Shown here: positions 1 to 39,025 of the stretch, in pieces
How positions within the stretch are numbered: the first letter of the stretch is position 1
Layout: every line of letters starts with the position of its first letter
IMG/VR virus record: IMGVR_UViG_3300037440_000142
Coordinates: 1-51,586 of that record
Strand: one strand, 5' to 3'
DNA length: 51,586 nucleotides
Source of the DNA: a virus
Taxonomy: Duplodnaviria; Caudoviricetes
Translations under genes and position numbers: made by a program
Notes under the pieces: generated by a model
Seen by the model: only the letters and a program-made list of their open reading frames with translations
Databases searched by the model: none
What the model was told of the DNA's origin: nothing

Positions 1-96
1 GTACCATACGTCGGGCTTGTGGTAGCGGAAATCATCCGTTTGCCGCACGTTTTGCGGATCAAGCCGTAATCCATCGTCGTCAAATAGCTGACTCAT
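1..96 (-). CDS. Partial hypothetical protein, runs off the window start
   Basis: ATG at 96 preceded by GGAGG; open to base 1 (MSQLFDDDGLRLDPQ...VWY). Confidence 0.6.
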   Translation of the reverse strand, partial: MSQLFDDDGLRLDPQNVRQTDDFRYHKPDVWY

Positions 97-116
97 TTGT
101 TAGCTTCCTCCACGTT

Positions 117-440
117 TCATCTGTGCGCGTTGTCCATTTTCCTGTCATTGGCCGATTTTGTGCGCCAAACCTCAGCTTCGGCGAATAGCAGCTTCATGTA
201 CGTCTCTGCCGTCTTCCAATCCGCGTAGGAATTTTGTTTTCGTTCAATGGCGGCAAGGTAATCAGGATGGCGCTTTATCCATGAATCCTTTTCAGGGATA
301 GAGCTACCTACGGCATCGCCGTACAGAGATGCATAAGTAGACTTCAGGTAATCATCTGCTGTCGCCTGTGCGCCATATAGCCTGCCATAGTCTTTTGACT
401 TGGCTCGGGCCTGTTCTAGCAATCTATCAATGTCGGTCAT
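117..440 (-). CDS. Helical early protein, possibly UvsY-like recombination mediator
   Basis: All-helical 107 aa with C-terminal EVWRTKSANDR motif; near the SSB-like gene. Confidence 0.45.
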   Translation of the reverse strand: MTDIDRLLEQARAKSKDYGRLYGAQATADDYLKSTYASLYGDAVGSSIPEKDSWIKRHPDYLAAIERKQNSYADWKTAETYMKLLFAEAEVWRTKSANDRKMDNAHR

Positions 441-564
441 CGCTCAATCCTGTAGGGCGTATTTCAGGGACATGGACTATTACCAACAGTGATAAATAAC
501 AAAGCCGATGCCGGTTAGCGCCCACAACACAAGCTCGCCATATCGCCACCACCACTTGTCGAAC

Positions 565-759
565 TTAGTCACCGGTTTTATCCATCAGGTGTGCAAGTTC
601 CTTTCTGGCCGTCATGATGTTCGCATTGATCTCGTCGGCCACCATCGCGCCTTCGCGCAGACCGGCGTTTGCCAGTATCGTGAACAGGACCGGCACCGCC
701 TTGGCGGCCCCATCGAGTGCAATCCGTAAAAGCTCTAGTTCATGCGCATAATTAGTCAC
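565..759 (-). CDS. Hypothetical protein
   Basis: Overlaps the upstream ORF in the leftward operon. Confidence 0.55.
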   Translation of the reverse strand: MTNYAHELELLRIALDGAAKAVPVLFTILANAGLREGAMVADEINANIMTARKELAHLMDKTGD

Positions 760-1087
760 TGTTCTTCTCCGTCACAAAACCAACCCTATTATGCCTAGCC
801 GCCCATATATCCCATGCTGGACCTAGCTGTCCGGTTTTCAATGCTTCGCGTTCCCATGTTTCCCAAATTCCGCCCGCAGTTTTGGAGACAGAAAAAATCG
901 CAATCTGATCTTCATGGTTCATTTCCTCGAATGCCTCTTGTGCTGCACTCGCGTTCGGGGGGTCTTCGTTCAGAAATTGGAACACAGCCACAAGAATGTC
1001 CCTTTTATTCCTGCGGATTGCATCGCAAAGTTTCAGGAGCTTTATATCTCCTGATGGCTTTGCAATCATGAACGTCGTCATATCCAT
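752..1087 (-). CDS. Hypothetical protein
   Basis: Tightly packed in the leftward operon. Confidence 0.65.
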   Translation of the reverse strand: MDMTTFMIAKPSGDIKLLKLCDAIRRNKRDILVAVFQFLNEDPPNASAAQEAFEEMNHEDQIAIFSVSKTAGGIWETWEREALKTGQLGPAWDIWAARHNRVGFVTEKNSD

Positions 1088-1098
1088 GCGTCATGGAC

Positions 1099-1452
1099 TC
1101 AAAACGGAATCGAATCGTCAAAATCCATTTGTAGCGGTGTCACGATCCAGCCATGACCAAATCCCTTGGACGTGTAGTCCTTGGTGGTCAGGGCAATTTC
1201 CTTACCCGTCCATCCCTCACTGTTAGCTCCATAGGCGTTACAGAGAGTTTCAGTGTTGACCGAATTTAGGATCAGTCTCTTTTCCTTGCCGACAAAGTAA
1301 AGAGCTGGCTTGGAATTGGCCGGTTCCTTTTCTGAGGCTTCGTAATGCACGACCTCTACACGATCAATTGTCAGCTTCATGCTTTTTCCAATGAAGTCCT
1401 TAGCTTTCAGGTCATTGGTATTGCCTTCTTTGATAAAACCTTTCATGTCCAT
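1099..1452 (-). CDS. Single-stranded DNA-binding protein-like
   Basis: Acidic tail DFDDSIPF typical of SSBs; beta-rich core; GAGG SD before ATG 1452. Confidence 0.7.
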   Translation of the reverse strand: MDMKGFIKEGNTNDLKAKDFIGKSMKLTIDRVEVVHYEASEKEPANSKPALYFVGKEKRLILNSVNTETLCNAYGANSEGWTGKEIALTTKDYTSKGFGHGWIVTPLQMDFDDSIPF

Positions 1453-1871
1453 CGTAATTCCTCGTTGTCTATCCATTGAGTGTCTTGATCGAGTTGCAGC
1501 CACCACCACTGAAGCATGAGTTCTTGTTCTTCTGCTTCCTGGTAGTCGTTTTCTAGTTCGTCGTCCATTTTGGGTTGCGCCTCTGTGTGGAGTTACCGTT
1601 TTCGCGGTTGGTATTCTGACAGGCACCTGCGCCGACGCTTTGCCAGAAATTCAGACGTACATCTCGACCCGTAGATCGAGCAACAAGCGTCCTTGTGCAG
1701 CGGCGCATCGCACCATCCGCAAGCCCGACGGCTTAGGTATTGCCTCTCGTTTCTGGTCAGCTTTTCCATGCCGGCTTCGGGAAGCACTTCGGGCACATGG
1801 TTTGTTTCTCGGTGTAAGCAAATCTGTGTTGACACCACATGCAACGAGCAAAGACCAATGGAGTTGGCGCG

Positions 1872-2150
1872 CTATTCACCGGGCTTCACCTCTCTCCCGC
1901 AGTTATTGCAATAAGCAGCAAGGCCGGGCGGAATAATAAGCACCTCCAGGTTTTCGCATGAACAGTGTTCACATGGCCCAATTGGCCTCCCCACATTGCC
2001 GTTGAGCCGCCTTATCTCCATGTTTTGCTCAACGATAACGGACTCCATCGCTTCCATACGTCGAGCAGCCCGCTGAATTAAGGCTGGCGGGTAGCCATCG
2101 TCTGCGAGACGGGCGGCAAGGGCATCTAGTTCTTTGATAATTTCGCTCAT
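1872..2150 (-). CDS. Hypothetical protein with C-terminal zinc ribbon
   Basis: CEHC...CNNC motif. Confidence 0.55.
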   Translation of the reverse strand: MSEIIKELDALAARLADDGYPPALIQRAARRMEAMESVIVEQNMEIRRLNGNVGRPIGPCEHCSCENLEVLIIPPGLAAYCNNCGREVKPGE

Positions 2151-2155
2151 TCCAC

Positions 2156-2458
2156 TTACCCAACCTGCTTTCTCATCAAGCTAGGAAGTACTACATCAAC
2201 CAATTCATCCGTAATTTGCTTGGCAGCGGCCCTTATCGCTTCTTCTCTTACCGCCTCGTCGATTAGCTGATTCATGCGAGGATGGTTTTGCAGGGAATAC
2301 CATGCCTCGTTTAATGTCAGGTACTTTTCTCGCCAATCTTCGTCGATCTCGTACAACACAAAATCGCGGTCGCAGTCGTCCAGTTCTGGGACGAACTCAA
2401 GATCCGGTTCCTGCGGGCCATCGCTTATGCGGCACGGAATCAAATTGCGGTTTCTCAT
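2156..2458 (-). CDS. Hypothetical protein
   Basis: 4-nt overlap with the upstream gene. Confidence 0.6.
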   Translation of the reverse strand: MRNRNLIPCRISDGPQEPDLEFVPELDDCDRDFVLYEIDEDWREKYLTLNEAWYSLQNHPRMNQLIDEAVREEAIRAAAKQITDELVDVVLPSLMRKQVG

Positions 2459-3126
2459 ACATCAACCCATATTTTGTTCTTGCGAATCAACCAAGCCGTC
2501 CCATAGAGAAGGCCGTACTTCTTTGTGAAGTGTTTCAATGGCCGGTCACTGGCCCGTATCTCTCTAACAATTTGCGGGTTGACGACGTTGTTTCTTCTGT
2601 TACGACATTGCGTCTTGCTGCTGGCCCAGCGGCAATTACCCGGTTCGTAGTTACCATCGTTGTCCGGGTAGCGGTCTAACGATTTGCCTTCTGGCCGCTC
2701 ACCCATATCAGAGAGGAAGTTCTCGAAGCTGTTAAGCCAGCGGTCGCAAACCTTGATGCCGCGCCCGCCGTAGTTGTGGTAGTTGATGGCTTTCTCGTTA
2801 TAGCAGCGCTGTTTCATCGAGGTCCATATGTGGTAGGTCGATGTTCCTCTCATGCCGTGCTTCTTGTTGTGCTCGTTGTTTCGACGCGCTTCTTTCAGCA
2901 AGCATCCACAGCTTTTGGTGGTTCCGATCCGCATGGAACCGCCATCTACTTCGGCGATTGCGCCGCATCTGCATTGACATAGCCATCGGCTACGCCCCAC
3001 GTACCGAATCGCCGTCAAGCGACCGAACGTCAGCCCGGTCATGTCTACGATTGGCTGCCGTCGGCGCTTGCCTTTACGAACCAACGGCGGCAGTCCCAGC
3101 ATGATGATTTCGTCGTCGGGGCTCAT
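2455..3126 (-). CDS. Phage HNH-like endonuclease (AP2-associated family)
   Basis: FGRLT..WLCQCRCG..TKSCGC, W.SMKQRC, YGGRGIKVCDRW..FENFL.DMG, SLDR..NDGNYEPGNCRWA..Q..N; start moved to the ATGA overlap at 3126. Confidence 0.8.
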   Translation of the reverse strand: MSPDDEIIMLGLPPLVRKGKRRRQPIVDMTGLTFGRLTAIRYVGRSRWLCQCRCGAIAEVDGGSMRIGTTKSCGCLLKEARRNNEHNKKHGMRGTSTYHIWTSMKQRCYNEKAINYHNYGGRGIKVCDRWLNSFENFLSDMGERPEGKSLDRYPDNDGNYEPGNCRWASSKTQCRNRRNNVVNPQIVREIRASDRPLKHFTKKYGLLYGTAWLIRKNKIWVDV

Positions 3127-3410
3127 TCGATTACCTCGCGCACTAGGATGCAGTTGTTCATGTCCATCTGTGCGCTGCGATAACCAAATTCCTCTAGTGA
3201 ATAAACGTGCATAGAGTCCGTGTCGATGTAGAACTCGCGCGGCTTTGGCTTGATGCGGTATTCGTAGCGACTCCAGTCCCATGTCATCTCTCTGTGAAGA
3301 TGCCATTCGCGCGCGCTCATGCCTTCATACGCACGCGCCTGCTCAACCAACTCTCCATCGGCATAAGCCAGCATCACTTCTGCGGCCTTTCGTGTTTCGT
3401 CGCGATTCAT
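3123..3410 (-). CDS. Hypothetical phage protein
   Basis: AYADGE..EQ and WDW..YEYRIKP motifs common in phage early proteins. Confidence 0.65.
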   Translation of the reverse strand: MNRDETRKAAEVMLAYADGELVEQARAYEGMSAREWHLHREMTWDWSRYEYRIKPKPREFYIDTDSMHVYSLEEFGYRSAQMDMNNCILVREVIE

Positions 3411-3698
3411 GACACTTTCTCCAGCGGCTTCTGGCTGTATGACAACCCGGCTGCTATGAACACATTGTCGATTGCTTCTTGTTCGGAATCGGCATATTGC
3501 GTCAATTCCTCGTTATCATCTGGCCACGCACTCCAGCGATGGTTAAGGCGGTTGTAATCGGTAAGGACAATCATCAGATGTCCCCGTTATAGAATTCACG
3601 CACCCATTCAGCTATGAATCCAAGTAATCCAAACAATCCACAAGTACCGCCCATAACAGCTATAAGGGCGAATAAACGGGTGATGTAGTCGAGTTCGT

Positions 3699-4055
3699 TC
3701 ATGACAGTGCCTCTACGGGCGACAGCGCCGCGACACATGCTTCAATGATTGCCCGAGGAAGCGATTCGTGATGCACTATCACCGGACCCCAATCACTCGC
3801 ACTGCCCCACGCGGTAACAACGTATTCGCTATGATCTCGGTGCCATTCGAAACACCAGCACCTTTGCATCAGGGCACCGGCTAAGCGCAGATCCGTGACG
3901 AAAAATTGAACAGGAATGTACTGGCCGCAAAACCGAATGTGACTACGACCCTTCTCTTGATCGCCAAACCCCATCGCCAGAACCCCCTTCGCCAACTCCT
4001 CGTCGTTCATTTCTCGAACTCCCCACGTTCCATCATTGTCCTTACAATCCCCCAC
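3699..4055 (-). CDS. Hypothetical protein (start may be ~4010)
   Basis: C-terminal SLPRAIIEACVAAL resembles phage ABA-sandwich-type proteins. Confidence 0.5.
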   Translation of the reverse strand: MGDCKDNDGTWGVREMNDEELAKGVLAMGFGDQEKGRSHIRFCGQYIPVQFFVTDLRLAGALMQRCWCFEWHRDHSEYVVTAWGSASDWGPVIVHHESLPRAIIEACVAALSPVEALS

Positions 4056-4189
4056 TGTTCGTTTTGAAACAGTAAGGCCCTTGCCATTTCCGCCAGCATT
4101 CGTTCGTGATTTCGCTTGTATCGATAAGCAGAAAAATCAATGACGTTGCGGCGGTCGTTCCATTCGATGGCTGTGGTAAAATGATTCAC
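4007..4189 (-). CDS. Hypothetical protein
   Basis: Coupled overlaps with both neighbours. Confidence 0.55.
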   Translation of the reverse strand: MNHFTTAIEWNDRRNVIDFSAYRYKRNHERMLAEMARALLFQNEQWGIVRTMMERGEFEK

Positions 4190-4506
4190 AGGTTTTTCTC
4201 GATGTAATCGGCGATCATGGAGAAGTTGTTTTGTCGGTAGTGATCATTCATGACGGCAATACGCATTTCGGTTTCTGCGTCCAAGCCATCGCGATATTTG
4301 TTAGGCAGCAATCGCTTGAGCGGGATGCGGCAGCCTTTCGGGTAGTATGTGTAGCCGTCATTGCGTATTTGCCATTCCGCGCCCTGCACGTCGCACAAAA
4401 CACCAAGAGCACAAAACCGCTCCCCGTCATGTAAGTCACCACTGGTTTTCTGGTATTGCCCAGACCGCAGCGCCTTAATCCACTTCTGCTTTAACTGCTT
4501 ATCCAT
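4186..4506 (-). CDS. Conserved hypothetical phage protein
   Basis: WIKALRSGQY..G.LH..FCALGVLCD..IA.MND..F..IADYIE motifs. Confidence 0.7.
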   Translation of the reverse strand: MDKQLKQKWIKALRSGQYQKTSGDLHDGERFCALGVLCDVQGAEWQIRNDGYTYYPKGCRIPLKRLLPNKYRDGLDAETEMRIAVMNDHYRQNNFSMIADYIEKNL

Positions 4507-4651
4507 CACTCTTCCTCCAGTTCCGCCACTTCTTTCAACAGGTCTTGAACTTTCACGGCCTCTCGAAAAATACGTACCCACTCGCGAGTTCCTATCTGAT
4601 ATCGCCGCATTTCGGATTTCAGGGATTCGAGGCGATTTGGTAGATCAATAG

Positions 4652-4924
4652 TCATGGCGCTTCACCGAATCGAATTCCGTAACTGATTTGGTCAAGCGAA
4701 TCCTCGGCACTTGTCGGCCCAAGGGGCGGGCCAACCAGCAAGTGACTAACATGCTCGTATTCCACAAAAGTCCGCCACGTAACAGCCTTCCTCGCGCGGA
4801 ATGTGAATGTCGGGCTATCACCATAAAAACCCCCGTCAGCTACCTTCGTGCCTATAAGCACTTCGCTGGTAATGCCACAGCCGGAAAGGGTGGTGATTAG
4901 GGCTATTGCAATCAGGCGGTACAT
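4652..4924 (-). CDS. Putative lipoprotein, first gene under PL
   Basis: MYRLIAIALITTLSGC signal peptide and lipobox; GGAG SD; beta-rich mature part. Confidence 0.65.
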   Translation of the reverse strand: MYRLIAIALITTLSGCGITSEVLIGTKVADGGFYGDSPTFTFRARKAVTWRTFVEYEHVSHLLVGPPLGPTSAEDSLDQISYGIRFGEAP

Positions 4925-4959
4925 GGCTTCTCCGGGGGTGTTGGTTGGTCTATGGGAGG

Positions 4960-5000
4960 ATACTAAACCCATGTTTGGGCCGTGTCAACCCATGTTTGGG
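4960..5000 (-). promoter_or_regulatory. PL promoter with two operators
   Basis: Minus-strand TTGACA (4988-4983), 17 nt, TAGTAT (4965-4960); CCCATGTTTGGG at 4968-4979 and 4989-5000. Confidence 0.85.
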
Positions 5001-5233
5001 CCTTTTTTAATGTGACGGGGGTCGCGGCAAGCGTTTCATAGGGTGGTATGGTGGCCCTGAAATTTGACAACCCACACAGAGGGGTAGGGCAGTGACTAAA
5101 AACGTTCGGAGACAGATACACGACGACCTGTACGACGCGCTCAGGTCGGTAGAGACGTGGGGGGATCAGGGAGCTACTGGCGTATTACGGGCTGTAGCGC
5201 CTATGGTGGAGGGTTTGGCGGCCCTTCTGGATC

Positions 5234-5500
5234 TTACTCTTCGTCCGGCGGCATCAAAAGCTCGTAAGGGGAGCAGCGCAGGCCCATAGCCACCTGGGTC
5301 AGTACATCAACGGTAATTCCCACATCCGCAGCAAGCACCCGCTGCACCGTTGATTTGGAAGTGCCGATACGCTTGGCCAGTGATTCGACTCTGTTCGTGC
5401 CGTGGTTGAATTGCTGGGCAAGCCTTCGCTTAACATTCTCAGCCAATATCTCGCGCGTCTCCCGCGCAATGAATTTCGAACGCTTTGGCTGCTTCTTCAT
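5234..5500 (-). CDS. CI-like XRE HTH repressor, no peptidase domain
   Basis: LAENVKRR..LAKRIGTSKSTVQRV..TVDVLTQVAMGLRCSPYELL; divergent from a cro-like gene. Confidence 0.85.
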   Translation of the reverse strand: MKKQPKRSKFIARETREILAENVKRRLAQQFNHGTNRVESLAKRIGTSKSTVQRVLAADVGITVDVLTQVAMGLRCSPYELLMPPDEE

Positions 5501-5527
5501 AGAGATACAGCCTAATCTCCCTTTAGG

Positions 5528-5568
5528 CCCAATAGTGGGTTGCAAAAGCCCAAACAAGGGCCTATAAT
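5528..5568 (+). promoter_or_regulatory. PR promoter with two operators
   Basis: TTGCAA (5540-5545), 17 nt, TATAAT (5563-5568); CCCAATAGTGGG 5528-5539 and CCCAAACAAGGG 5549-5560. Confidence 0.85.
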
Positions 5569-5575
5569 CGCCGCC

Positions 5576-5776
5576 ATGAGTGAATCTCTGCACGATTACG
5601 TAATTTCCCAGTTGCTGGCCGCCAGAGGCCGCTGGCCCTCAGTAGAGCAGGGCAGCGGTGTCTCTGCGCGCACGTTCAGCAAGGTTGCGCGAGGCGAGGT
5701 CAAGTACCCGCGTGTCGGCACCATCGAGAAGCTGGCTAAGTATTTCCGACAGCAGGAGCAGGGCAGTGTCAATTGA
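5576..5776 (+). CDS. Cro-like HTH repressor
   Basis: 66 aa, SGVSARTFSKVARGEVKYPRVGTIEKLAKYF; directly after PR. Confidence 0.8.
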   Translation: MSESLHDYVISQLLAARGRWPSVEQGSGVSARTFSKVARGEVKYPRVGTIEKLAKYFRQQEQGSVN

Positions 5777-5846
5777 GTCTCCCGTTTTTTGTTTTATTCG
5801 GGGACGCGCAAATTATTCCAACTCAGATATGGCGTCAAGAAAAACT

Positions 5847-5883
5847 GGCCGTTTGGGCTCATAAAGCCAAACGGTCTTTTTTT
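5847..5883 (+). terminator. Intrinsic terminator after cro, possibly bidirectional
   Basis: CCGTTTGG/CCAAACGG stem followed by T7; A-run on the 5' side. Confidence 0.7.
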
Positions 5884-5938
5884 GTAAAACGTTGATTTGA
5901 CTTAAGAACCAGACAATAAGCGGGGCAGGGTGGAAGCA

Positions 5939-6322
5939 TCACTCATTGATAGCGACTTCTGGGGCCATATCCCACTTCTCGCTTATCCAGTCAGCCTGAC
6001 GTGGGCAGCGCAATTCAGATTGAAGGTGTGCGACTTGTTGCGCCATAAAACGAATCGACAAGATTTCTCCACGGGTAAATTCCTCCCCATGTGGCGCAAT
6101 CAATTTTCCATCTCGCAATCGCCATCCGGTCCACGTCGAATCTGCGACTTCCAGGTTTCCCGTAGTCACGAATTCAATCAATCGCAGGGCCGCATACGGC
6201 GGTTCTTCGCCACGCTTCCACCTTCTCGCCGTGGTGACATGAACTTTGGCTATTTTGGCTATAACTTCGGCAGTAATTCCGTAAAGGGCGTTATGCTCTT
6301 GTCGCGGCCAGAATGCTCGCAT
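5939..6322 (-). CDS. HTH + DUF3653 protein, XafT-like Xer recombination activator candidate
   Basis: N-terminal HTH (IAKIAKVHVTTARRWKRG..P..ALRL) then WTGWRLRDGKLIAPHGEEF, the DUF3653-type motif; next to a dif-like site. Confidence 0.75.
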   Translation of the reverse strand: MRAFWPRQEHNALYGITAEVIAKIAKVHVTTARRWKRGEEPPYAALRLIEFVTTGNLEVADSTWTGWRLRDGKLIAPHGEEFTRGEILSIRFMAQQVAHLQSELRCPRQADWISEKWDMAPEVAINE

Positions 6323-6376
6323 CGGCTTTTCCCTTGTTCTTTTTGGACAAGCATAGCACGGGTTCTGGCCATGTCT

Positions 6377-6404
6377 AGTACGTATAATGTATATCTAATC
6401 AAAC
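6377..6404 (+). other. dif-like Xer site, candidate attP
   Basis: AGTACGTATAA-TGTATA-TCTAATCAAAC vs E. coli dif GGTGCGCATAA-TGTATA-TTATGTTAAAT: 8/11, 6/6, 5/11. Confidence 0.7.
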
Positions 6405-6483
6405 ACTTACGCTCATTCAAGCGTAACAGTTCCAATCAGTTCCAAGACTCGCCCAGAACCCTTCTAGTACGAGCAAATTGCAA

Positions 6484-6723
6484 ATGAGTTCTGACCCGAA
6501 ATTACCTCTCGGGTCGTGCTTCTGTCGCTGCCCGGAATGCGGCGAATACTTCGCTTCCGAGACGTCATTCGACCTGCACCGCACCGGGAGCCATCAAAAA
6601 CGAGAACGCGCGTGTTTTGCCCCGATTGAGGTGCGAGACAAGCACTCCCGACCAATGCTCAGGCTCAACGAGAAGGGATATTGGGTGCTGACTATCCGAC
6701 CGAAGATTGAGGAGGCCGCATGA
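6484..6723 (+). CDS. FDxHR-type zinc-binding phage protein
   Basis: CRCPECGEYF..SFDLHRTG..RAC. Confidence 0.7.
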   Translation: MSSDPKLPLGSCFCRCPECGEYFASETSFDLHRTGSHQKRERACFAPIEVRDKHSRPMLRLNEKGYWVLTIRPKIEEAA

Positions 6724-7007
6724 AGATAAAACTCGGCCAACAGTGCTGGGTGGGCTGGGCTCACAAAAAAACTACCAAGTGCAAAGACGTGAATCGGCAT
6801 ATCTGCCGGGTAGTGACAGTTGACGGCGGACCCTTTGGCGCAAATGAGCCATTGCCAGGAGCCAGTGCCCGCATCAGTGAACGTAGTTGGCATATCGATA
6901 CCGGGGCTTATGTGGCGGAACGATTACTGACTCCGTTTCAACCGGATGAGGATTTGATATTTGACGAAGCCGGAATTGTCGTCGGCAAAGCCGGCGCGCT
7001 CACATGA
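6720..7007 (+). CDS. Hypothetical protein
   Basis: ATGA-coupled on both sides. Confidence 0.6.
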   Translation: MKIKLGQQCWVGWAHKKTTKCKDVNRHICRVVTVDGGPFGANEPLPGASARISERSWHIDTGAYVAERLLTPFQPDEDLIFDEAGIVVGKAGALT

Positions 7008-7267
7008 ACGTGACATGCACACATTGCGGTTGGGTTCATTTCGCCGTAACTCGCGAATTCGCAGAGGACAGTGTGTCTTTATTCAATGGCTATTACGAAA
7101 CCCTCACGCCTAAGAAACAACAACAATACTACGGCGGAAAGCCTTCATCCATTGCCGATTATACCGGATGCAAACGGTGTGGAAAGAATGATTTCCGGGT
7201 GGAAAGAGATGGTGATTGCCCGGTTGGTTGCACGATTTGTCCGGTTATTTTTGAGGACGTGACATGA
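7004..7267 (+). CDS. Cys-rich zinc-finger hypothetical protein
   Basis: CTHC...CKRC...CPVGCTIC. Confidence 0.65.
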   Translation: MNVTCTHCGWVHFAVTREFAEDSVSLFNGYYETLTPKKQQQYYGGKPSSIADYTGCKRCGKNDFRVERDGDCPVGCTICPVIFEDVT

Positions 7268-7355
7268 AAAGATTTCTATTCGAAGAAATTCCCCTCGCCT
7301 TCGCCATTTTCGTTGTGATTCTGGCAATGGTGTGTGTGGCGATGGTGGCTGTTTC

Positions 7356-8285
7356 GTGAAAGACATTGATGCGGTTGTAAAGTCTCTGGACTGGCACGTC
7401 GAGCACATCAGCGAATCTTGGCGGCAAAGTGTCGAGGGGATATTCGAGACGGGGCGCAGAGTTCAGTTCGCGCTTGATGAGTTGCCGCATGGCGAGAAAG
7501 CGGAGCTATGGCATAGGTTGCCATTTAACGAAGGGACCGGTGCGAAACTGCGAGCCATAGCCTCAAATGAAGGAATTCTTTCTTATCGGAAAGATTTGCC
7601 TCCGGCATGGACGACCATCTACGAACTGACTCTACTGGAAGATGATCTGTCCGCCTTCATGGAGAGCGGAGAACCGGTAGAGCAAAAGAAAATTCGAGCA
7701 TGGCGACGTGATAGAACAATTACACAGCGCCGCGCCCACCTCCAAGATCCTCAGTCACTACCCGCCGGCAAGTACCGCATCATATACGCCGACCCACCTT
7801 GGACATACGGTGACACTCGCGCTGGCCTGCAGGGTTACACCGGGGCCGATGAACACTATCCATTGATGAGTATAGCAGATCTTTGCGCACTTCCCGTTGA
7901 GGAATTGTGCATGGACGACGCCGTGCTGTTCCTTTGGGTTACCGCTCCGTTGCTGTACGACGCCTATGCCGTCATCAACGCATGGGGATTCGAATACAAG
8001 GCGCAGTTCATCTGGGACAAGGTGAAGCACAACGTTGGGCATTACGTATCAGTACGTCATGAGTTGTTGCTTATCTGTACGCGCGGACAATGTACCCCGG
8101 ACAGCAAGACACTACACGATTCGGTAGTTTCTATAGAGCGCGGCAAGCACTCAGAAAAGCCCGAACACTTCCGTGAACTCATAGACGGGATGTACCCGCA
8201 TGGGCCACGCATTGAGCTATTCAGGCGCGGCGATGCTCCGCAAGGCTGGGAGGTTTTTGGCAATGAAGCCAGCCGCGCGGCTTGA
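7356..8285 (+). CDS. MT-A70 family N6-adenine methyltransferase with N-terminal DUF3102-like region
   Basis: IIYADPPW, HYPLMS, LFLWVT, WGFEYK, HELLL, HSEKP, IELF..GWEVFGNE. Confidence 0.88.
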   Translation: MKDIDAVVKSLDWHVEHISESWRQSVEGIFETGRRVQFALDELPHGEKAELWHRLPFNEGTGAKLRAIASNEGILSYRKDLPPAWTTIYELTLLEDDLSAFMESGEPVEQKKIRAWRRDRTITQRRAHLQDPQSLPAGKYRIIYADPPWTYGDTRAGLQGYTGADEHYPLMSIADLCALPVEELCMDDAVLFLWVTAPLLYDAYAVINAWGFEYKAQFIWDKVKHNVGHYVSVRHELLLICTRGQCTPDSKTLHDSVVSIERGKHSEKPEHFRELIDGMYPHGPRIELFRRGDAPQGWEVFGNEASRAA

Positions 8286-8742
8286 GGCAGACCGAGAGAA
8301 GTACCAGAACGGCTACTACGCCGACAAACTGGAGCAGGGACTCCAGTTCCAGGACTTCGCCACGAGAGAACTGTACAAGCGCGGCATTGTCGTTGTCGGC
8401 TATGCCTCTCGTCGCTGGCAGAACGAGAAAGGCGAAAACATGCTGGGCGCTGAAATCAAGCGAGACGGCGAATTCAGAAACACTGGCAACTTGTACATTG
8501 AGATTGCCGAAAAGTCCCACCCGGACAAACCCAATTATACGCCGTCCGGAATTATGCGGGACGACAATTCATGGTTGTTTGTCATCGGGGACGAGCAAAC
8601 TCTCTACATTTTTTCAACTGTCTACCTCAGAAAGCTGATTAAGGCTCGTGGTTGGAGATTCGTTCAAAAGACAACCTCCCAAGCGCACCTAATGCCGCTT
8701 GAGGATGCTGAACGGTATTGCATTAGAAAGATAGAACCGTGA
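8263..8742 (+). CDS. Putative PD-(D/E)XK nuclease
   Basis: AEIKRD..TGNLYIE..PSGI motif; overlaps the methyltransferase stop. Confidence 0.55.
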   Translation: MKPAARLEADREKYQNGYYADKLEQGLQFQDFATRELYKRGIVVVGYASRRWQNEKGENMLGAEIKRDGEFRNTGNLYIEIAEKSHPDKPNYTPSGIMRDDNSWLFVIGDEQTLYIFSTVYLRKLIKARGWRFVQKTTSQAHLMPLEDAERYCIRKIEP

Positions 8743-8932
8743 GGGCGAACACGTAAAAAAGCGCGCGGTGTAGGGGTTAAGTAGTCAGGCACCGAATCAA
8801 TAACTGACTAGCCTAAATACGACGGATGGCTCCGACGGATTTGGGCTTCCTTACTCTCCAAATTCTGTTTGGGGGTAAGGGGGCCTTTACTCAGGATTCA
8901 CCAGCGGATTTGAACTTTTACTGGATACATGG

Positions 8933-9250
8933 ATGAAAACAGACATAGACCCTGACTTCCCTATCACCGAGAAAATGCGCGAGTGGGCTGCAATAAAAGT
9001 TCCTCGTGTAGATATCGACCTGGAGACAGAGAAGTTTATTGACTACTGGCTCGGACACGGCAAGCGCATGGCGAGTTGGGAAGCAACTTGGCGTAATTGG
9101 ATGCGGCGCGCACCCGACATGGGCGGCTGTTTGAAAGCTTTTGTACCGGCTAATCGAAAGCCACAGGAAGTAACCGAAGAACAGCTACAGAAGGACCGTG
9201 AACAGTGGCAAAGGGACATGGAAAGGCTGGGAGTGCGGGTAATCAAATGA
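8933..9250 (+). CDS. Minimal replication protein (DnaT-like domain as in the C-terminus of phage initiators)
   Basis: DF..TE.MREWA..ETEKFIDYW..K.MASWEATWRNWMRR. Confidence 0.65.
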   Translation: MKTDIDPDFPITEKMREWAAIKVPRVDIDLETEKFIDYWLGHGKRMASWEATWRNWMRRAPDMGGCLKAFVPANRKPQEVTEEQLQKDREQWQRDMERLGVRVIK

Positions 9251-9386
9251 AGTGTTGCATGGAATGCAAGGGTTCAAAGATTCTTGGAGTTGAAGTGAAT
9301 CCCTACTTTTTTAGCGACATTAATCGACGATTGTGGATATGCCGTGTTTGTGTTGATGCTGTTTTCAAACGATATCGGGAGAAGAA

Positions 9387-9587
9387 ATGCTAGACAAGAG
9401 ACTTCATAGGATTGGCAAGGTAACTATCAAGCCGGGAGGCATAACTGTCGAAGGCTTTCGCGCGGACGACTGCATGTGTCGTGAAGTCGCGATTCTCGGA
9501 ATGATGTGGGCTATTGACCAATTATGGACGGAAGTCAAAGCGACCATTGACCGTCCCGGTGGTAATGGAACGGCGGGGATTGATTGA
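9387..9587 (+). CDS. Hypothetical protein
   Basis: GGAG SD; coupled to the next gene. Confidence 0.5.
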   Translation: MLDKRLHRIGKVTIKPGGITVEGFRADDCMCREVAILGMMWAIDQLWTEVKATIDRPGGNGTAGID

Positions 9588-10003
9588 TGACCCCAACCGA
9601 ACTAGCAACCCTAGCCATAGGCTATGCATCAATGTTCTCTGGCTATCCCGTCCCGGACCATGCCGTGACTGTGGAATACGTACCCAATGCTTTCTTTGCC
9701 GAACACGTTTGTGGCGACGTGACGAAAAAGTGTGGCGTCTATGCCGCCTTCATGGACGGTGACGCGCCTTACACGCTGTATCTCGACGAACAATTCGAGG
9801 GCCAGCTTGATTACTACATCGCGAGTTTTGTAGTTCATGAGGCCGTTCACTACCTTGAATGGCACAGTGGCGCGTATGACACAAACAACTGCGACCACAG
9901 TTTGGCGCGGGAGCGACGCGGTTTGTACGTACAAAACCAGTACCTTGTTTTCAATGGGAAACGGCCGATTTTGAGAATGGTAAATGGAGCGTGCAAGAAA
10001 TGA
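9584..10003 (+). CDS. HExxH zinc-metallopeptidase-like protein
   Basis: LYLD..SFVVHEAVHYLE..ERRG..VQ. Confidence 0.6.
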   Translation: MMTPTELATLAIGYASMFSGYPVPDHAVTVEYVPNAFFAEHVCGDVTKKCGVYAAFMDGDAPYTLYLDEQFEGQLDYYIASFVVHEAVHYLEWHSGAYDTNNCDHSLARERRGLYVQNQYLVFNGKRPILRMVNGACKK

Positions 10004-10596
10004 AAAAGCGATGGACACCAGAAGAGATTGACTACATCCGGGCCAATTACGGACGTATGACGATTCGGGCCATTGCCGATTATCTTGGCCGTACTCATGC
10101 CAGCGTAGGAGCTTATGCAGACAAGCGCAAGTTAGGCAAACCAGTCAAGCCATGGACGGAAGAGGAAGAGGAATACATGGCGACCTGGTATGGCAAGAAA
10201 TCGTCTTGGCAGATTGCGCGACATCTTGGACGAACTTCTGGGAGTGTCAGGAAACGAGCACAGATGCGTGGATTAAGCGTGAACAACCAATACAAGGCCA
10301 AGGAGACAATTCTGTTCGGCAAGGTAATGAACGTTACCGAAATACGGGACTGGATGGGCGAGAACATGGATTACGTGCTGTCCCGTGCATGTCTTCTGGA
10401 CCGATTGAGACTAGGAAAGACAGATTGGGATTTGCTGGCAGCTCCGAACATTGCCAATTGCAAGCCCGAGAATCGTCCTGAAATATTCGTTATCACAGCC
10501 CTGTACGAATGGAAACGCTCACCGGAACTAAAGGCCTATTGCGGGCCAAGACGAAAGATATTGCCGGTGGCTTATCGGTATATGGAGGCGGCGTGA
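10000..10596 (+). CDS. DNA-binding protein with two HTH/Myb-like repeats
   Basis: WT.EE..Y...Y..IA..LGRT..SV occurs twice. Confidence 0.7.
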   Translation: MKKRWTPEEIDYIRANYGRMTIRAIADYLGRTHASVGAYADKRKLGKPVKPWTEEEEEYMATWYGKKSSWQIARHLGRTSGSVRKRAQMRGLSVNNQYKAKETILFGKVMNVTEIRDWMGENMDYVLSRACLLDRLRLGKTDWDLLAAPNIANCKPENRPEIFVITALYEWKRSPELKAYCGPRRKILPVAYRYMEAA

Positions 10597-10778
10597 TGGA
10601 GAAGAACAGTGGAAATTAATTGGTCATCACTTTTTGTTCATATTGGCCCGGTTGCTATACGTCCCGGTAAATACTGGATTGGGGTAGCTTCGGGTAATCG
10701 TTTCTGTACGAAGCAGCGCCGGACTGCCTCAAGGGCCATTGAGGATGCCAGAAAGATGGAGCAAGTCGGTGATAGGCA

Positions 10779-11081
10779 ATGACTGACAAACTCTGGAAAT
10801 CATGGGAACGCAAGATAGCCAAGTACATAGGTGGGGAGCGCATTCCTGTAAGCGGCAGACAACGAGGCTATGCACCGGATATCAAGCACGCCTGGTTGGC
10901 TGTCGAAATCAAGCAGCGGAAGAAACTACCAGAATGGATTGCGGACGCAATGAGACAAGCCGAAGCATCCGCCATTGGCGTACAGCTACCTGTTGTCATA
11001 CTCGCCGAGAAGGGCCAGGAAACGGGCGAGACCTATATCTTGTGTCGATTGAGCCAGTTTAGAGATCGGTGGATAGCGTGA
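10779..11081 (+). CDS. Holliday junction resolvase-like nuclease (Hjc-type)
   Basis: WERKIAKY..R.P.SG..PDI..VEIKQRK. Confidence 0.75.
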   Translation: MTDKLWKSWERKIAKYIGGERIPVSGRQRGYAPDIKHAWLAVEIKQRKKLPEWIADAMRQAEASAIGVQLPVVILAEKGQETGETYILCRLSQFRDRWIA

Positions 11082-11106
11082 CTATCAATTTCAGGGGCAT
11101 TGATGA

Positions 11107-11526
11107 ATGTTGATAGATCGCTATCAGTCTAATGACATCGAGAGTGCCATATCCTGTTGGGGCGCATGGGCACGTCGTACAACAGACAGATTAGGGTATC
11201 CGCGAACATCCTGCATTTCTCGAATGGTTGAACAAGTCAAGGTTTTCTCAAAAAAGGCAGATACAGAGAAAACACTGACAGCAAGGGGTAAGCAAACCAA
11301 ATCCATGAACGCGCCCAAAATCGGCTATGTAGACCCTCAGATAATGGCTATTGACCGTATTGTGGCGGATCTGTCGGGACGGCATAAGAAGGCCATTTAT
11401 AGACGATATCTTTGGCTTCAGCCGGACCGGATAGCGGCATTGCAGTTGAGGATGGACAGACACGAGTATACGGCGCTGGCTAATGATGCGGTAAAATATA
11501 TTGGAGATAGGTTGGGGGTTTTGTGA
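11107..11526 (+). CDS. Antitermination protein Q-like late regulator
   Basis: WGAWAR..LGYP N-terminus and C-terminal HTH; lies before the late promoter and terminator. Confidence 0.7.
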   Translation: MLIDRYQSNDIESAISCWGAWARRTTDRLGYPRTSCISRMVEQVKVFSKKADTEKTLTARGKQTKSMNAPKIGYVDPQIMAIDRIVADLSGRHKKAIYRRYLWLQPDRIAALQLRMDRHEYTALANDAVKYIGDRLGVL

Positions 11527-11543
11527 TGGAGAAGGTCTCGAAA

Positions 11544-11761
11544 TGACAACGCTGATAATTGAGGTTCCAGGCGGATTAGTCCGGGAAGCGCGCGAGGCCG
11601 CAGAGGAATTGTGCGGTGGCGGATCGTTGCAGTGGGAGTACATAGAAGGTGCTTGGACCGCCTATCCTAATACGAACGGCCCGCCTGTACGGGTCTATCG
11701 CGGTGTATACGACTTGCCGGGCAAGCTCGATCTGCCTGCGCCTGTAATCCACTCCCGGTAA
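11544..11761 (+). CDS. Hypothetical protein (start approximate)
   Basis: Open frame after the Q-like gene. Confidence 0.4.
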
Positions 11762-11770
11762 TAAACAGTG

Positions 11771-11944
11771 AATCTTTTGAGGATGGTGCGGCGTGGAAAG
11801 CAGACACGCTCGGTCGCTGAGAACAGCGTGGTGGAAGTCATCCTTCCCCCGTGAAGCACCACGGTATAGATAGTTGCCCATACGCGCGATAGATAAGGGC
11901 AAGTGCATAGCCGGAGTAGCGACCGGCCACCATCCTCAAAGGGT
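11771..11944 (+). ncRNA. tRNA-shaped structured RNA candidate
   Basis: 13-bp closing stem 11776-11788/11928-11940, D-like and T-like hairpins in tRNA geometry, plus three internal hairpins. Confidence 0.6.
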
Positions 11945-11949
11945 TTATA

Positions 11950-11974
11950 GCGTCCGTAGCTCAAATGGATAAAG
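11950..11974 (+). pseudogene. 5' fragment of a tRNA-Arg-like gene
   Basis: GCGTCCGTAGCTCAAATGGATAAAG resembles the bacterial tRNA-Arg 5' end (GCATCCGTAGCTCAGCTGGATAGAG); no anticodon or T arm follows. Confidence 0.45.
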
Positions 11975-12180
11975 AAATGAACTGGACAAAAGAACCACCG
12001 AGCGAACCGGGGATTTATTGGTATCGCTACGAAGACGACGACAGCCCTGAAATTGTCAGCGTATCTCTTGAGGCGTGGGGCGTTAGGCGCATCGGGTCAG
12101 ATGTCTTTGAAGATCTAGACGACTTTATCGACGACAACGATATTGAATGGTGGCCGGAGAGGCTGGTACCACCAAAATAA
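11965..12180 (+). CDS. Hypothetical phage protein
   Basis: WTKEPPSEPGIYWYR...W...L.PP motif. Confidence 0.65.
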   Translation: MDKEMNWTKEPPSEPGIYWYRYEDDDSPEIVSVSLEAWGVRRIGSDVFEDLDDFIDDNDIEWWPERLVPPK

Positions 12181-13506: not shown

Positions 13507-13530
13507 AGCCCCGCTAGTCGGGGCTTTTTT
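13507..13530 (+). terminator. Intrinsic terminator
   Basis: AGCCCCG-ctagt-CGGGCT followed by a T run. Confidence 0.65.
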
Positions 13531-13543
13531 GTGGAACAAGTTA

Positions 13544-14254
13544 ATGCTCTACCTAGTTTCCGGCTACAGGCGTTCCGGAACATCGGCCTGTATGCGGGCG
13601 CTTCAGGAGGGATTACTTGAGGGGGCGGTGGCGTACCAGCCAAGTCAAGAAAAGATAGGTGCCGCGCCTCTGGATGGCTACGTTGCAAATCCGTCCGGGC
13701 TTCTTGAAGTCGGACAATACTGGTACATGCGGCCAAAGTTTTTGCGCGGCGTACCCGAAGGAACACTTTTCAAGTGCCTTTATGATGGCCTCCCGCACCT
13801 CCCGAGGAGAGACTACGTTGTGGTTTTCATGCGGAGAGACCCGCAAGAGATCGCCGCATCTTGTGCCCGCGTAGATCAGCATTTGCGACAAATGGGAGTG
13901 AAAGAGAATACAGAAAAGAATTTCCCATTTGATTGCTTCCGTCCGTATGACCAGGAAGACATCGATCACGTCATCGGCATTATGCAAGCCAGATCAGACG
14001 TTAGATTGATACAGGTTCAGTTTGCGGAAATGGTCAGCGATCCACTACGTATATTTCGTGATCTTGCGGAATATATTCCGCTTAATCCCGAAAAGTCAGC
14101 ATCAACAGTTATCCCCAGTTATTACAGGTTCAGAAATGGCAGCAGCAGCGAAAGCCGGGATGAGGGGCCACGCCCCGACGGTAAAGATAGCCCCGACCTA
14201 CAAGATAAGCGAAGCGGATGCCGCGAAGATAATCGGCAATCCAGAGCGCTTTAA
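13544..14254 (+). CDS. Sulfotransferase-like P-loop-fold protein
   Basis: LVSGYRRSGTSACMRAL (RSGTS PAPS-binding-type loop), NPSGLLE, VVFMRRDPQEIAAS, F..MV.DP. Confidence 0.7.
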   Translation: MLYLVSGYRRSGTSACMRALQEGLLEGAVAYQPSQEKIGAAPLDGYVANPSGLLEVGQYWYMRPKFLRGVPEGTLFKCLYDGLPHLPRRDYVVVFMRRDPQEIAASCARVDQHLRQMGVKENTEKNFPFDCFRPYDQEDIDHVIGIMQARSDVRLIQVQFAEMVSDPLRIFRDLAEYIPLNPEKSASTVIPSYYRFRNGSSSESRDEGPRPDGKDSPDLQDKRSGCREDNRQSRAL

Positions 14255-15638
14255 GTACGAGAAGTGCTGGAGTCTCAACGATTATCGCAAATATTCTCCC
14301 GGCGAGAATCTTGTAGACCTGTTCATTGAAACGGCCAATCCCAAAGAGGGCGAAACCCTTGTTGATTGGGGGTGTGGTACTGGACGAGCCGGCCTAAAAC
14401 TACACCAGCACGGCCTTGATGTAACGCTCGTAGACTTTGCCGGTAACTGTCTTGACGACGAAGTAAAGCAAGCACTCAACAGTAAGCTACGCTTTACCGA
14501 ACATGACTTATCAGTAAAGCGTCCTTTCCCATCGACATATGGTTTTTGTACCGATGTCATGGAGCATATTCCCGAGAACCAGGTGGATGCGGTTCTGGAC
14601 AATATACTCGAATACTCAAGGCACGTATTCCTGCAAATATCGACTGTAGACGACGTTTTCGGCGGTCATCCGAAGATTGGCGAAGACCTGCATGTAACGG
14701 TTCGCCCCTACCAGTGGTGGCTCAAGAAACTGGTATCGAAGGACGTTGTAGTCCATCACTCGAACGACTTGGGTAATGCGGCGATATTTTATGTCACCGG
14801 CTGGGGCAGTGTAAACCTGCACGGTAAGGGCGAAGTCAACATCGGGCCAGAGCAGATAATCGAGAACATGAAGGCCAATGCAAAGCATGGCTTTCAGCCC
14901 GTAAGGCCCCACGAACGGCAGGAGACTGAGCTTATCATCCTCGCTGGTGGCCCCACGCTTAACGATTTCGAGGATGAAATTGTCGATTTGCGCCGCTCAG
15001 GTATGCCATTGGTTACAGTCAACGGGTCCTACAAGTGGGCAATTGACAGGGACTTGAGTCCGTCGCTGCAACTGATAATCGACGGCCGTGAACACAACAA
15101 GCGATTTACCGAACAGGTACCTGGACTTACAGACAAGACCAAATACATCTGCGCATCACAATGTCATCCCGATGTCTTTACGGATCTTCCCAAAGACCGA
15201 ACTTACATGTGGCAGGTATCTATCGAGGATTCGTTGATACCGCACATCACAGAGCATTACGGGGAGATGTACAAGGACTGGCTTCCCTGTCCCGGTGGCT
15301 CAACTGTCACGACCCGCGCGCTATGCCTCCTGATGATGTTGGGCTATTACAAATTCCACATCTACGGATTTGACAGTTGCCTTTTTGACGGCAAGGGACA
15401 TCACGCATACGACCAACCCGAGAACGATAAACAGGCACAAATGGAAATCGTGGTTGCGAAAGGCACAGAACACGAAAGGAAGTTTCTGTGTAATCCGTGG
15501 CATGTATTCCAGGCAAGGGATTTTCAGGCAATGGTTTCGCGTGTGCTTAAAGACGCAAAGTTAGATGTAAAAGGTGATGGGTTGATTTCATATCTTATCG
15601 CGACTGGTGCGCGGATAGCTGATCAACAGACAGTTTAA
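14136..15638 (+). CDS. Class I SAM methyltransferase fused to Maf/DUF115-like transferase domain
   Basis: VDWGCGTG, CTDVMEHIP; then ILAGGPTL, VTVNGSY, ASQCHP, GGSTVTTRA..LGY..FHIYGFDSC. Confidence 0.75.
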   Translation: MAAAAKAGMRGHAPTVKIAPTYKISEADAAKIIGNPERFKYEKCWSLNDYRKYSPGENLVDLFIETANPKEGETLVDWGCGTGRAGLKLHQHGLDVTLVDFAGNCLDDEVKQALNSKLRFTEHDLSVKRPFPSTYGFCTDVMEHIPENQVDAVLDNILEYSRHVFLQISTVDDVFGGHPKIGEDLHVTVRPYQWWLKKLVSKDVVVHHSNDLGNAAIFYVTGWGSVNLHGKGEVNIGPEQIIENMKANAKHGFQPVRPHERQETELIILAGGPTLNDFEDEIVDLRRSGMPLVTVNGSYKWAIDRDLSPSLQLIIDGREHNKRFTEQVPGLTDKTKYICASQCHPDVFTDLPKDRTYMWQVSIEDSLIPHITEHYGEMYKDWLPCPGGSTVTTRALCLLMMLGYYKFHIYGFDSCLFDGKGHHAYDQPENDKQAQMEIVVAKGTEHERKFLCNPWHVFQARDFQAMVSRVLKDAKLDVKGDGLISYLIATGARIADQQTV

Positions 15639-20078: not shown

Positions 20079-20084
20079 TAGTGT

Positions 20085-22609: not shown

Positions 22610-22610
22610 A

Positions 22611-23408: not shown

Positions 23409-23409
23409 A

Positions 23410-23544
23410 TTGGCCGGTCTATCCCTAACAGGACTAGGGATAGTGGCCTACAGCTTTATTCTGAGTGTGATAGCAGGAATGCCATTCATACCATCAATGG
23501 CCATTGTCACTGTGGTCGTGTTGATTTTGGCCTTGAGGCGATGA
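23410..23544 (+). CDS. Small membrane protein
   Basis: 44 aa, two hydrophobic stretches, ends in RR. Confidence 0.45.
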   Translation: MAGLSLTGLGIVAYSFILSVIAGMPFIPSMAIVTVVVLILALRR

Positions 23545-23579
23545 GGCATTCAAGCGTTGTCATTGCCAGATCATAAATC

Positions 23580-23756: not shown

Positions 23757-23778
23757 GACAGTAGATTTCGAGGATGAA

Positions 23779-23997: not shown

Positions 23998-24019
23998 TTA
24001 CCGAAGACATGGTGCAGGG

Positions 24020-24535: not shown

Positions 24536-24605
24536 TCAAGGGCTTACACACACAAGCTCATGTATGCACATGTGGGTATGGCTAGAACCCGCATGGTTGT
24601 GCGGT

Positions 24606-39014: not shown

Positions 39015-39025
39015 ATGGATTTAAT

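Follow-up and report, generated by a model that had tools for sequence, protein, structure and literature searches.

A DUF3653 gene and a degenerate dif-like site in a P22-type tailed phage: a probable XerCD integration module

How does a temperate tailed phage in which no integrase is found enter the chromosome of its host? The question is raised by a whole IMG/VR virus record (IMGVR_UViG_3300037440_000142) of 51,586 bp with a G+C content of 51.4%, which is referred to here as the window. It centres on a cassette at positions 5939-6404, where a gene for a protein resembling XafT, the factor encoded by TLC-phi, stands beside a sequence that mimics dif, the chromosomal site of the host's XerC and XerD recombinases (XerCD). 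We think it quite probable that this cassette is a TLC-type XerCD integration module of a tailed temperate phage, and the most likely explanation for the pairing of gene and site is that host XerC and XerD are borrowed for entry into the chromosome. As an earlier reading of the same DNA from its letters alone (the sequence-only reading) had done, we infer that the phage replaced int/xis and lysogenises at dif.

XafT of TLC-phi joins a helix-turn-helix (HTH) to a DUF3653 domain and activates XerD, and in beta- and gammaproteobacteria DUF3653 genes are described as clustering at dif (Midonet et al. 2019, PMC6744903). The gene in the window, at 5939-6322 on the minus strand, is a lone antisense open reading frame (ORF) encoding 127 amino acids, and its product contains WTGWRLRDGKLIAPHGEEF, which follows the motif W.GWR..G.L..P.G..F. 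The sequence-only reading had called it a DUF3653-type gene and this is confirmed by Pfam. The product matches PF12375 (DUF3653) with an E-value of 1e-7 and 32.4 bits, above the curated gathering cut-off of 22.4, and the match, between residues 58-98 and profile positions 3-43 of 66, spans the first two thirds of the profile only. The same single DUF3653 match, at 33.3 bits, was returned by a six-frame family search of the window. Three residues, W64, W67 and P77, are invariant in 20 metagenome homologues of 45-72% identity. An AlphaFold2 model made with 21 homologues (mean predicted local distance difference test score, pLDDT, 81) shows an N-terminal, HTH-like three-helix bundle at residues 18-54, followed by a beta hairpin and two helices. 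When the fold was compared using Foldseek, XRE-family regulators were matched weakly (E 0.4-3) and the top viral matches were uncharacterised proteins from uncultured tailed phages; a Pfam scan of the protein at E up to 0.1 returned no HTH family. Co-folding of the window protein alignment with XerD (residues 36-327) from a Woeseia metagenome-assembled genome (MAG) scored 0.01 against a mark of 0.32, which gives no answer either way.

The second component of the cassette is AGTACGTATAA-TGTATA-TCTAATCAAAC, located at 6377-6404 on the plus strand, 54 nt from the start codon of the XafT-like gene at 6322. Scored against the 28-nt motif that we take to be E. coli dif, the XerC arm (6377-6387) matches at 8/11 positions, the centre (6388-6393) at 6/6 and the XerD-side arm (6394-6404) at 5/11. 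These scores reproduce those given earlier for a dif mimic placed about 55 bp upstream of the gene. The XerC arm carries a CGTATAA variant, and the centre, which is presumed to be the crossover region, is identical to the centre of chromosomal dif sites in genomes. The XerD-side arm is degenerate: it keeps the T at its first innermost position (T1) and lacks the G at the fifth (G5). Within the window, the 17-mer comprising XerC arm and centre is unique at up to 3 mismatches (0.03 expected from shuffles), and no other position in the 51.6 kb reaches 11/13 matches to the inner XerC arm and centre.

Several features surround this site, which we call attP, as the putative phage attachment site. 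A consensus scan placed a promoter-like site for the XafT-like gene at 6350-6377 on the minus strand, between attP and the gene (TAGACA, 16 nt, TATGCT, with TG before the second hexamer; a pattern match only). Following recombination at the centre, it would remain with the XafT-like gene. On the other side, a hairpin at 6402-6431 (inverted repeat I13, with a terminator-like call on the minus strand) overlaps the outer end of the XerD-side arm. The idea that the site is a mere -10 box, from the TATAAT inside the XerC arm, was rejected: no plus-strand promoter was called there, and conservation spans the full 15-17 nt of the dif half-site. A hidden second site flanking the cassette was also sought and is absent both from the window and from the flanks of its relatives. 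In addition, 17-nt inverted arms at 6360-6376 and 6445-6461 bracket attP, and the window-like group conserves a palindrome-like TTCTG...CAGAA followed by TTGAAAAG in columns 57-88 of alignment A5 (window about 6432-6459), 30-60 nt past the XerD-side arm. The palindrome-like block or the inverted arms may be an operator or accessory sequence.

Is the pairing of gene and site peculiar to this phage? Scans with a homologue alignment produced 18 loci from viruses, 77 from metagenomes and 2 from one Woeseia MAG. For the window and the viral and metagenome loci, the 170 nt upstream of the gene were scored for the inner XerC arm (7 nt) and centre (6 nt) with a threshold of at least 11/13, leaving the XerD arm out of the score. 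The evaluable set consisted of 93 loci, that is, the window, the 18 viral and the 77 metagenome loci, minus three with too little upstream sequence. A TLC-type, asymmetric site was present in 79/93, always with the XerC arm towards the gene, which supports the earlier proposal of an XafT-attP cassette. For comparison, the threshold was reached at 2 of 1,355,384 other positions in the same loci. The 79 positive loci carry 57 distinct 28-mers, and in these, positions 3-17 carry much information and the XerD arm little, save for a G at the fifth innermost position (79%). Positions 3, 5, 8, 10 and 11 of the XerC arm are invariant, positions 6 and 9 are nearly so, and each of the six positions of the centre has the dif base in 86-100% of the distinct sites. 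In ten window-like loci the site lies exactly 54 nt from the gene, as it does in the window, and one of the relatives (L027) is syntenic with the window over the site, the XafT-like gene, the cro-like gene and the cI-like gene.

The low conservation of the XerD arm has a pattern of its own. T1 or G5 is present in 55/57 of the distinct sites, versus 44% for random bases, and the window has T1. In a study in which 190,528 attP variants were assayed in V. cholerae, XafT of TLC-phi is reported to have integrated nearly all attP variants in which the dif base was retained at the first (T) or fifth (G) innermost position of the XerD arm, and FtsK-driven recombination to have required a near-canonical XerD arm (Miele et al. 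2022, PMC9226527). In their sequence, all but two of the distinct sites agree with this published requirement for XafT-driven integration. The same report describes attP sites that deviate from dif as escaping excision driven by FtsK (PMC9226527), an escape that would explain why the XerD-side arm has stayed degenerate.

Fourteen loci scored negative (L002, L004, L017, L028, L029, L031, L032, L034, L037, L052, L075, L085, L095 and L098). L002 has a weaker site, at 8/11 and 6/6. As a separate observation, L004 (9898-9925) and L017 (about 2930-2960), one of which is a 5-kb provirus record, each contain an inverted site, with a near-canonical XerD arm towards the gene and a degenerate XerC side. 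This arrangement suggests a different subclass of the module.

The absence of an integrase, claimed by the sequence-only reading for both the tyrosine and the serine types, held when all six frames of the window were searched at E up to 10. Neither PF00589 nor PF00239 was matched, and the control genomes were matched in 14/14 and 13/14 cases, respectively; the result is that of a linear contig and has to be read as such. Pfam scans of the called window ORFs likewise gave no recombinase, transposase or partition family, seven structural ORFs being scanned against PHROGs only. The relatives were much the same. No tyrosine recombinase (PF00589) was found in 16/17 related virus records (9/10 among those at least 90% complete) and no resolvase-type PF00239 domain in 17/18 records, the window included. 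Neither family was found in 15/17 of the related records, among them two complete circular genomes (G001 and G009). Relatives integrated elsewhere by an integrase had been named as speaking against the proposal; the records with a recombinase came down to two exceptions, G002 and G008, which are weighed below.

These carriers are of more than one kind. G001 is a complete circular assembly of 55,284 bp with a 62-nt terminal repeat and is sipho-like, having a terminase (phrog_9, 9e-111), portal, major head protein and tape measure. It shares tail-fibre genes with the window at 81-96% amino-acid identity (window 18603-22609; G001 22265-24930), and the two genomes are otherwise hardly related. A host-range module seems to have been exchanged recently across tail types, and the shared genes make it probable that the host of G001 is the same as, or similar to, that of the window. 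The head closure protein Hc3 of the window recurs in G007, G009 and G011 (about 40 kb), accompanied in G007 and G011 by the tailspike and lysozyme and in G007 by the ejection protein too. With podo-like carriers of the window type and the sipho-like G001, the cassette therefore occurs in at least two tail types.

Can the module be seen integrated? Genomes were sampled around the Woeseia MAG with the A1 profile, 401 of its order, 400 of its class and 267 of its family, or 1,068 in total. Homologues were present in 24/401 order genomes and 11/400 class genomes, and in most of them a dif-like site is no more than 1.5 kb away. Eight genomes (G055, G204, G167, G413, G232, G594, G554 and G761) have the gene between two sites, an upstream one with an XerD arm of 8-11/11 and a downstream one with an XerD arm of 1-5/11. 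In these elements the XerC arm is turned towards the gene, and 0.9-3.5 kb separate the two sites; G554 holds two units in tandem. The elements at chromosomal dif are L111, L114, L108, L275, L276/L285, L277, G413:C3:444356-446434 and G232:C67:65651-69157. Their polarity is the one to be expected if a circle carrying degenerate arm, centre, XerC arm and gene, in that order, had recombined with dif. Five genomes were searched for dif-like 24-mers: the only one in the genome adjoins the gene in G279, G413, G232 and G055, and G086 had none.

The sequence-only reading had suggested looking for related prophages flanked by dif hybrids, and this check came out in part. Hybrid-flanked elements of the small kind exist in the eight genomes, and for tailed relatives there is only one short contig. 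This is L042, a metagenome contig of 1351 bp in which the XerD arm matches at 11/11, 35 nt upstream of a gene that is ~74% identical in DNA to those of L045 and L047-L049; L047 also carries a tailspike-like gene, and upstream of its position 70 L042 aligns with no phage locus. L042 is thus a candidate junction of an integrated tailed relative. Searches of other kinds were negative for tailed prophages. A tblastn search of proteins from the window and related phages against the flanks in five genomes (up to 60 kb) found the DUF3653 gene only, and the window Hc3 protein gave 5 matches over the order genomes, none linked to dif. The G229 element beside dif is small and filamentous-like, with no recognisable tailed phage in a PHROG scan. 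When IMG/VR was scanned for the full dif junction pattern, the hits were mostly 5-12-kb proviruses. A hidden Markov model made from A1 gave only records of up to 13.8 kb among 80 loci examined out of at least 114 stretches, and a second scan, with alignment A3, gave the same records.

Which bacterium might supply the recombinases? The Woeseia MAG has one dif-like site, TATGCGTATAA-TGTATA-TTATGTTAAAT, and its first 17 nt, the XerC arm and centre, are identical at 17/17 positions to the attP of L022, L023, L025, L026, L027 and L030, in each of which the site is 54 nt from the gene. The CGTATAA variant is common to the window XerC arm and the dif of the Woeseia MAG and, among the genome sites examined, occurs otherwise only in G204. 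As phage sites follow the dif variants of host lineages, they do not behave as an operator for a phage regulator is expected to. The window site itself compares with the Woeseia MAG dif at 8/11 and 6/6, and Woeseia is put forward as a candidate host only.

If the cassette is an integration module, how would it act? The injected genome would circularise and the XafT-like gene would be expressed from the promoter-like site between it and attP. Host XerC would bind the conserved XerC arm of attP, and the XerD-side arm would bind XerD poorly. By analogy with XafT of TLC-phi, the DUF3653 protein would activate XerD without FtsK and stabilise the synapse between attP and dif, and strand exchange across the identical TGTATA centre would put the whole phage into dif. 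The predicted prophage would read, in order, host DNA, a junction of host XerC arm, centre and degenerate phage arm, phage positions 6405 to 51586 and 1 to 6376, a junction of phage XerC arm, centre and host XerD arm, and host DNA. The junction by the XafT-like gene would be a complete dif, still able to resolve chromosome dimers, and the other would be crippled, so that the prophage would not be excised by FtsK-driven Xer recombination and the factor would be needed again for excision. Integration might also have regulatory consequences, as cI, cro and the XafT-like gene would come to lie at one end of the prophage and the rightward early genes (from 6478) at the other.

A number of observations weigh against this account. 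The T1/G5 rule was measured with XafT of TLC-phi in V. cholerae and is extrapolated to the window family. The integrated examples are elements of 0.9-3.5 kb rather than tailed prophages, and no integrated tailed prophage with the module was found in the 1,068 genomes or in two IMG/VR scans. A single 11,478-nt contig of the probable source run, the one run that contains the stretch, crosses attP and shows the free form only, with no alternative junction (window 1-12000 was compared; contigs drop rare variants). The window XerC arm differs at 3/11 positions from the dif of the Woeseia MAG, the sole candidate for a host dif. Six window-like metagenome loci (L028, L029, L031, L032, L034 and L037) lack the site. 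In addition, the closest genome-borne homologues, at 45-48% identity, are two copies in one Woeseia MAG (G018) and have no dif-like site upstream; one copy is part of a ~10-kb element that also encodes an HK97-type capsid protein, a DUF5906 primase-like protein and a tyrosine integrase. These homologues and the site-less window-like loci mean that DUF3653 proteins are not always tied to dif, and another role is possible. Finally, two related phages carry a recombinase besides the module, namely a 306-aa tyrosine-recombinase ORF in G002 and a 258-aa resolvase-type ORF in G008.

The structure of the contig is a further point on that side. In the lambdoid layout the int gene is expected at the junction of the early and late operons, that is, at the ends of the window contig. 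The window is a linear contig and breaks where int might lie. Its left end is an assembly branch, where a 180-nt unitig has 36.6x coverage versus 10.3x for the phage in the source run. Here, a repeat or variant region broke the assembly, and an int gene might have been lost at the 51586/1 junction of this genome. The 180-nt unitig, which runs over window 1-109 with 10 differences, continues into unlike sequence.

Two side observations concern the genomes just named. In G002, the 41-kb record of L003 (39394-39831, minus strand), the cassette and the tyrosine-recombinase ORF are about 6.5 kb apart; XerC and XerD are proteins of about the size of this 306-aa ORF. The Woeseia copies lie at L102:17928-19549 plus L103:1-8001 (contig C66 of G018, about 57.9-68.0 kb) and near L021/L128 (contig C1, about 132.6 kb). 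In front of each is a small ORF that has hydrophobic stretches, and the element on C66 looks like a satellite or a small prophage.

What else could the cassette be for? Site and factor might act on the phage's own DNA, with XerCD resolving multimers of a plasmid-like prophage or circularising a terminally redundant genome, roles that are served by cer and psi on plasmids and by Cre-lox in P1. This would suit the failure to find either an integrase or an integrated tailed prophage, and the fact that the sole assembly evidence is of the unintegrated form; many early genes have no recognisable family, and an unrecognised plasmid-maintenance system could be among them. However, among the families recognised by Pfam scans of the window ORFs there was none for ParA, ParB, a protelomerase or plasmid replication. 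In cer and psi the XerD arm is good and the centre divergent, accessory sequence amounts to about 180 bp, and XafT is absent. The window family resembles them in having a host XerCD site on an extrachromosomal replicon and differs from them in its centre, which is identical to that of chromosomal dif, in its degenerate XerD arm and in the DUF3653 factor encoded next to the site. For cer/psi-type sites, the discussion of PMC9226527 mentions a few degenerate positions only. The model published there requires one XerD to be bound to a true dif (PMC9226527), which makes recombination of attP with attP less likely. With the same module also integrated at dif, in the same polarity, in eight genomes, action on the phage's own DNA is unlikely. 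We consider it very unlikely that the DUF3653 protein only regulates the lysogeny region, with the dif-like sequence having no role in recombination and with the phage either integrating through a recombinase encoded beyond the contig break or not integrating at all. The break of the linear contig where int is expected, the HTH-like bundle in the AlphaFold2 model, the close homologues in an integrase-bearing element that has no dif-like site and the integrase that accompanies the module in G002 would all fit. An operator, though, would not be expected to copy the host dif XerC arm and centre in 57 variants or to follow CGTATAA, the complete circular genomes of G001 and G009 are without recombinases, and the XerD-arm pattern fits what XafT was found to require by experiment.

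A third possibility is that the cassette is selfish, a minimal IMEX (an integrative mobile element that exploits Xer) of the 1-3.5-kb kind, which rides in tailed phages for dispersal and has no function in lysogeny. Two-site elements of 0.9-3.5 kb, too short for more than a few genes, do occur at dif in eight genomes, once in tandem, and the window gene stands alone and antisense, with a hairpin on one side and the rightward early genes on the other. Insertion by Xer would, however, leave two sites, and each phage locus has one. On a circular genome with a single site, any event between attP and dif would integrate the whole phage, so that this possibility collapses into the integration module that it was meant to replace. 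The near-universal lack of integrases in the carriers also suggests that the phages depend on the cassette, and a selfish passenger seems hardly probable at all.

The integration module is best compared with systems that are already known. As in TLC-phi (PMC6744903, PMC9226527), there is a DUF3653 gene, here with a putative HTH, beside attP, a poor XerD arm that keeps the first or fifth base, a XerC arm and centre that resemble dif, and no integrase found. Unlike TLC-phi, which is a small satellite of a filamentous phage, the carrier is a ~52-kb tailed double-stranded DNA phage. Likeness to XafT is judged here through the Pfam family only, and XerD binding, XerD-first exchange and integration are predictions for the window. 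The arrangement also resembles that of the Xer-exploiting Vibrio phages with an xafT homologue: a repressor, a XafT homologue and a dif-like attP form a cluster, and the module passes between virus types that are unrelated, here podo-like and sipho-like ones. In the Vibrio phages attP stands between the repressor and xafT, which end up as the outermost genes of the prophage, whereas in the window the XafT-like gene is on one side of attP and the rightward early genes are on the other, the repressor pair lying beyond the gene. The phages compared have Vibrio hosts; the window relatives have tailed capsids and bacterial hosts of sediment and soil. In a tblastn search of 50,697 GenBank phage records, the only phages matched were Vibrio phages VFJ and VCY (4 records, 2 phages), which are inoviruses of 7-8.5 kb; the match was to the L003 homologue, at 27-30% identity over 81-83% of that protein. 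Neither the window protein nor the L019 homologue gave a tblastn match to GenBank phages. With the Int/Xis phages lambda and P22, the window shares a temperate, tailed nature, divergent cI-like and cro-like genes and P22-type late genes. It differs from them in that no recombinase was found and in that the candidate attP lies in the early region next to cro, not between the late genes and int.

Xer-exploiting integration has been described, in the sources available, for filamentous phages and the satellites of these, for genomic islands, and for microviruses and tailless double jelly-roll phages, and a PM2-like IMEX is suspected in a 2026 preprint. A tailed-phage IMEX was not met in the literature searched, which treats tailed phages as integrase-dependent, although some could be listed in the supplements of PMC6744903 (a DUF3653 tree and tables) or among the PMC12715192 data sets. 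We lean slightly towards the view that cassettes of an XafT-like gene and a dif mimic define an unrecognised class of tailed-phage IMEX, consisting of integrase-less, sipho- and podo-like Caudoviricetes of sediment and soil bacteria that would hijack XerCD at dif. In the window lineage, with attP between cro and the rightward early genes, integration would uncouple the lytic early operon from its promoter region, so that factor-driven excision would have to precede lytic development. If this is right, the lack of an integrase is no longer a safe sign that a tailed phage of 40-55 kb is virulent or plasmid-borne, and dif becomes worth inspecting for large prophages. A portable module of repressor, XafT and attP would cross all major morphotypes of bacterial viruses, and the 57 distinct sites would form an independent, natural test set for the published XafT rule on the XerD arm.

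The remainder of the window is that of a lambdoid phage. A leftward block occupies 117-5593, all genes in 6478-51544 are rightward, and at the contig ends the leftward early operon converges with the rightward late operon. The record is classed as linear and has no end repeats; its completeness is estimated by CheckV at 100%. The lysogeny switch named in the sequence-only reading is present as a divergent pair of HTH genes, 5234-5593 (minus) and 5540-5776 (plus), each of which matches a PHROG repressor family. The first is a candidate cI-like repressor (Pfam HTH_3, 7.9e-5; phrog_4583 'transcriptional repressor', 5.9e-7), the true start of which is probably internal. The second is cro-like (phrog_9425, 2.9e-11; HTH_26, 4.5e-4), and a consensus scan places its promoter-like site at 5540-5568 on the plus strand (TTGCAA, 17 nt, TATAAT). 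A G+C-rich hairpin followed by a T run at 5840-5883 on the plus strand (inverted repeat I2, 17-nt arms, 82% complementary) separates the cro-like gene, which ends before it, from the 3' end of the XafT-like gene, and is a putative terminator.

Its gene content identifies the window as a tailed phage, one whose late genes are of the P22 type. The large terminase subunit that marks it as tailed is encoded at 25572-27086 (phrog_38, 4.3e-89; 2.0e-91 in six frames) and the portal protein at 27260-29446 (phrog_1216, 1.1e-18). These are followed by a P22-type tail and ejection block at 37426-46490, recognised by PHROG matches, with Hc3 at 37426-38583 (phrog_578, 1.1e-103), a DNA-ejection protein at 39026-40195 (phrog_598, 3.4e-38) and the tailspike at 44544-46490 (phrog_2234, 4.8e-10), all on the plus strand. 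A lysozyme gene at 46600-47073 was recognised in a family scan of ORFs. From TerL to the tailspike, the five PHROG-assigned proteins stand along 25.5-46.5 kb in what we take to be the gene order of P22. The earlier description of the phage as P22-like thus stands for the types and order of its late genes and not for its nucleotide sequence, in which no GenBank phage is matched: megablast of window 1-25000 against GenBank phages gave zero matches, and kinship to P22 is at the level of PHROG families only.

Some further genes deserve mention. An MT-A70 methyltransferase is encoded at 7332-8285, and a 538-aa protein at 14022-15638 has an S-adenosylmethionine (SAM)-methyltransferase domain joined to an MptE-like domain; this gene is overlapped by an ORF at 13529-14254 with a weak sulfotransferase match. 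One of 45 window ORFs that were scanned jointly has a Cpn10 (GroES-like) match. The gene at 2455-3306 on the minus strand encodes 283 aa with no Pfam match, and homologues of 37-51% identity occur in several cassette-bearing phage loci, twice in G011; from its sequence, the product is suspected to be an HNH/AP2-type nuclease.

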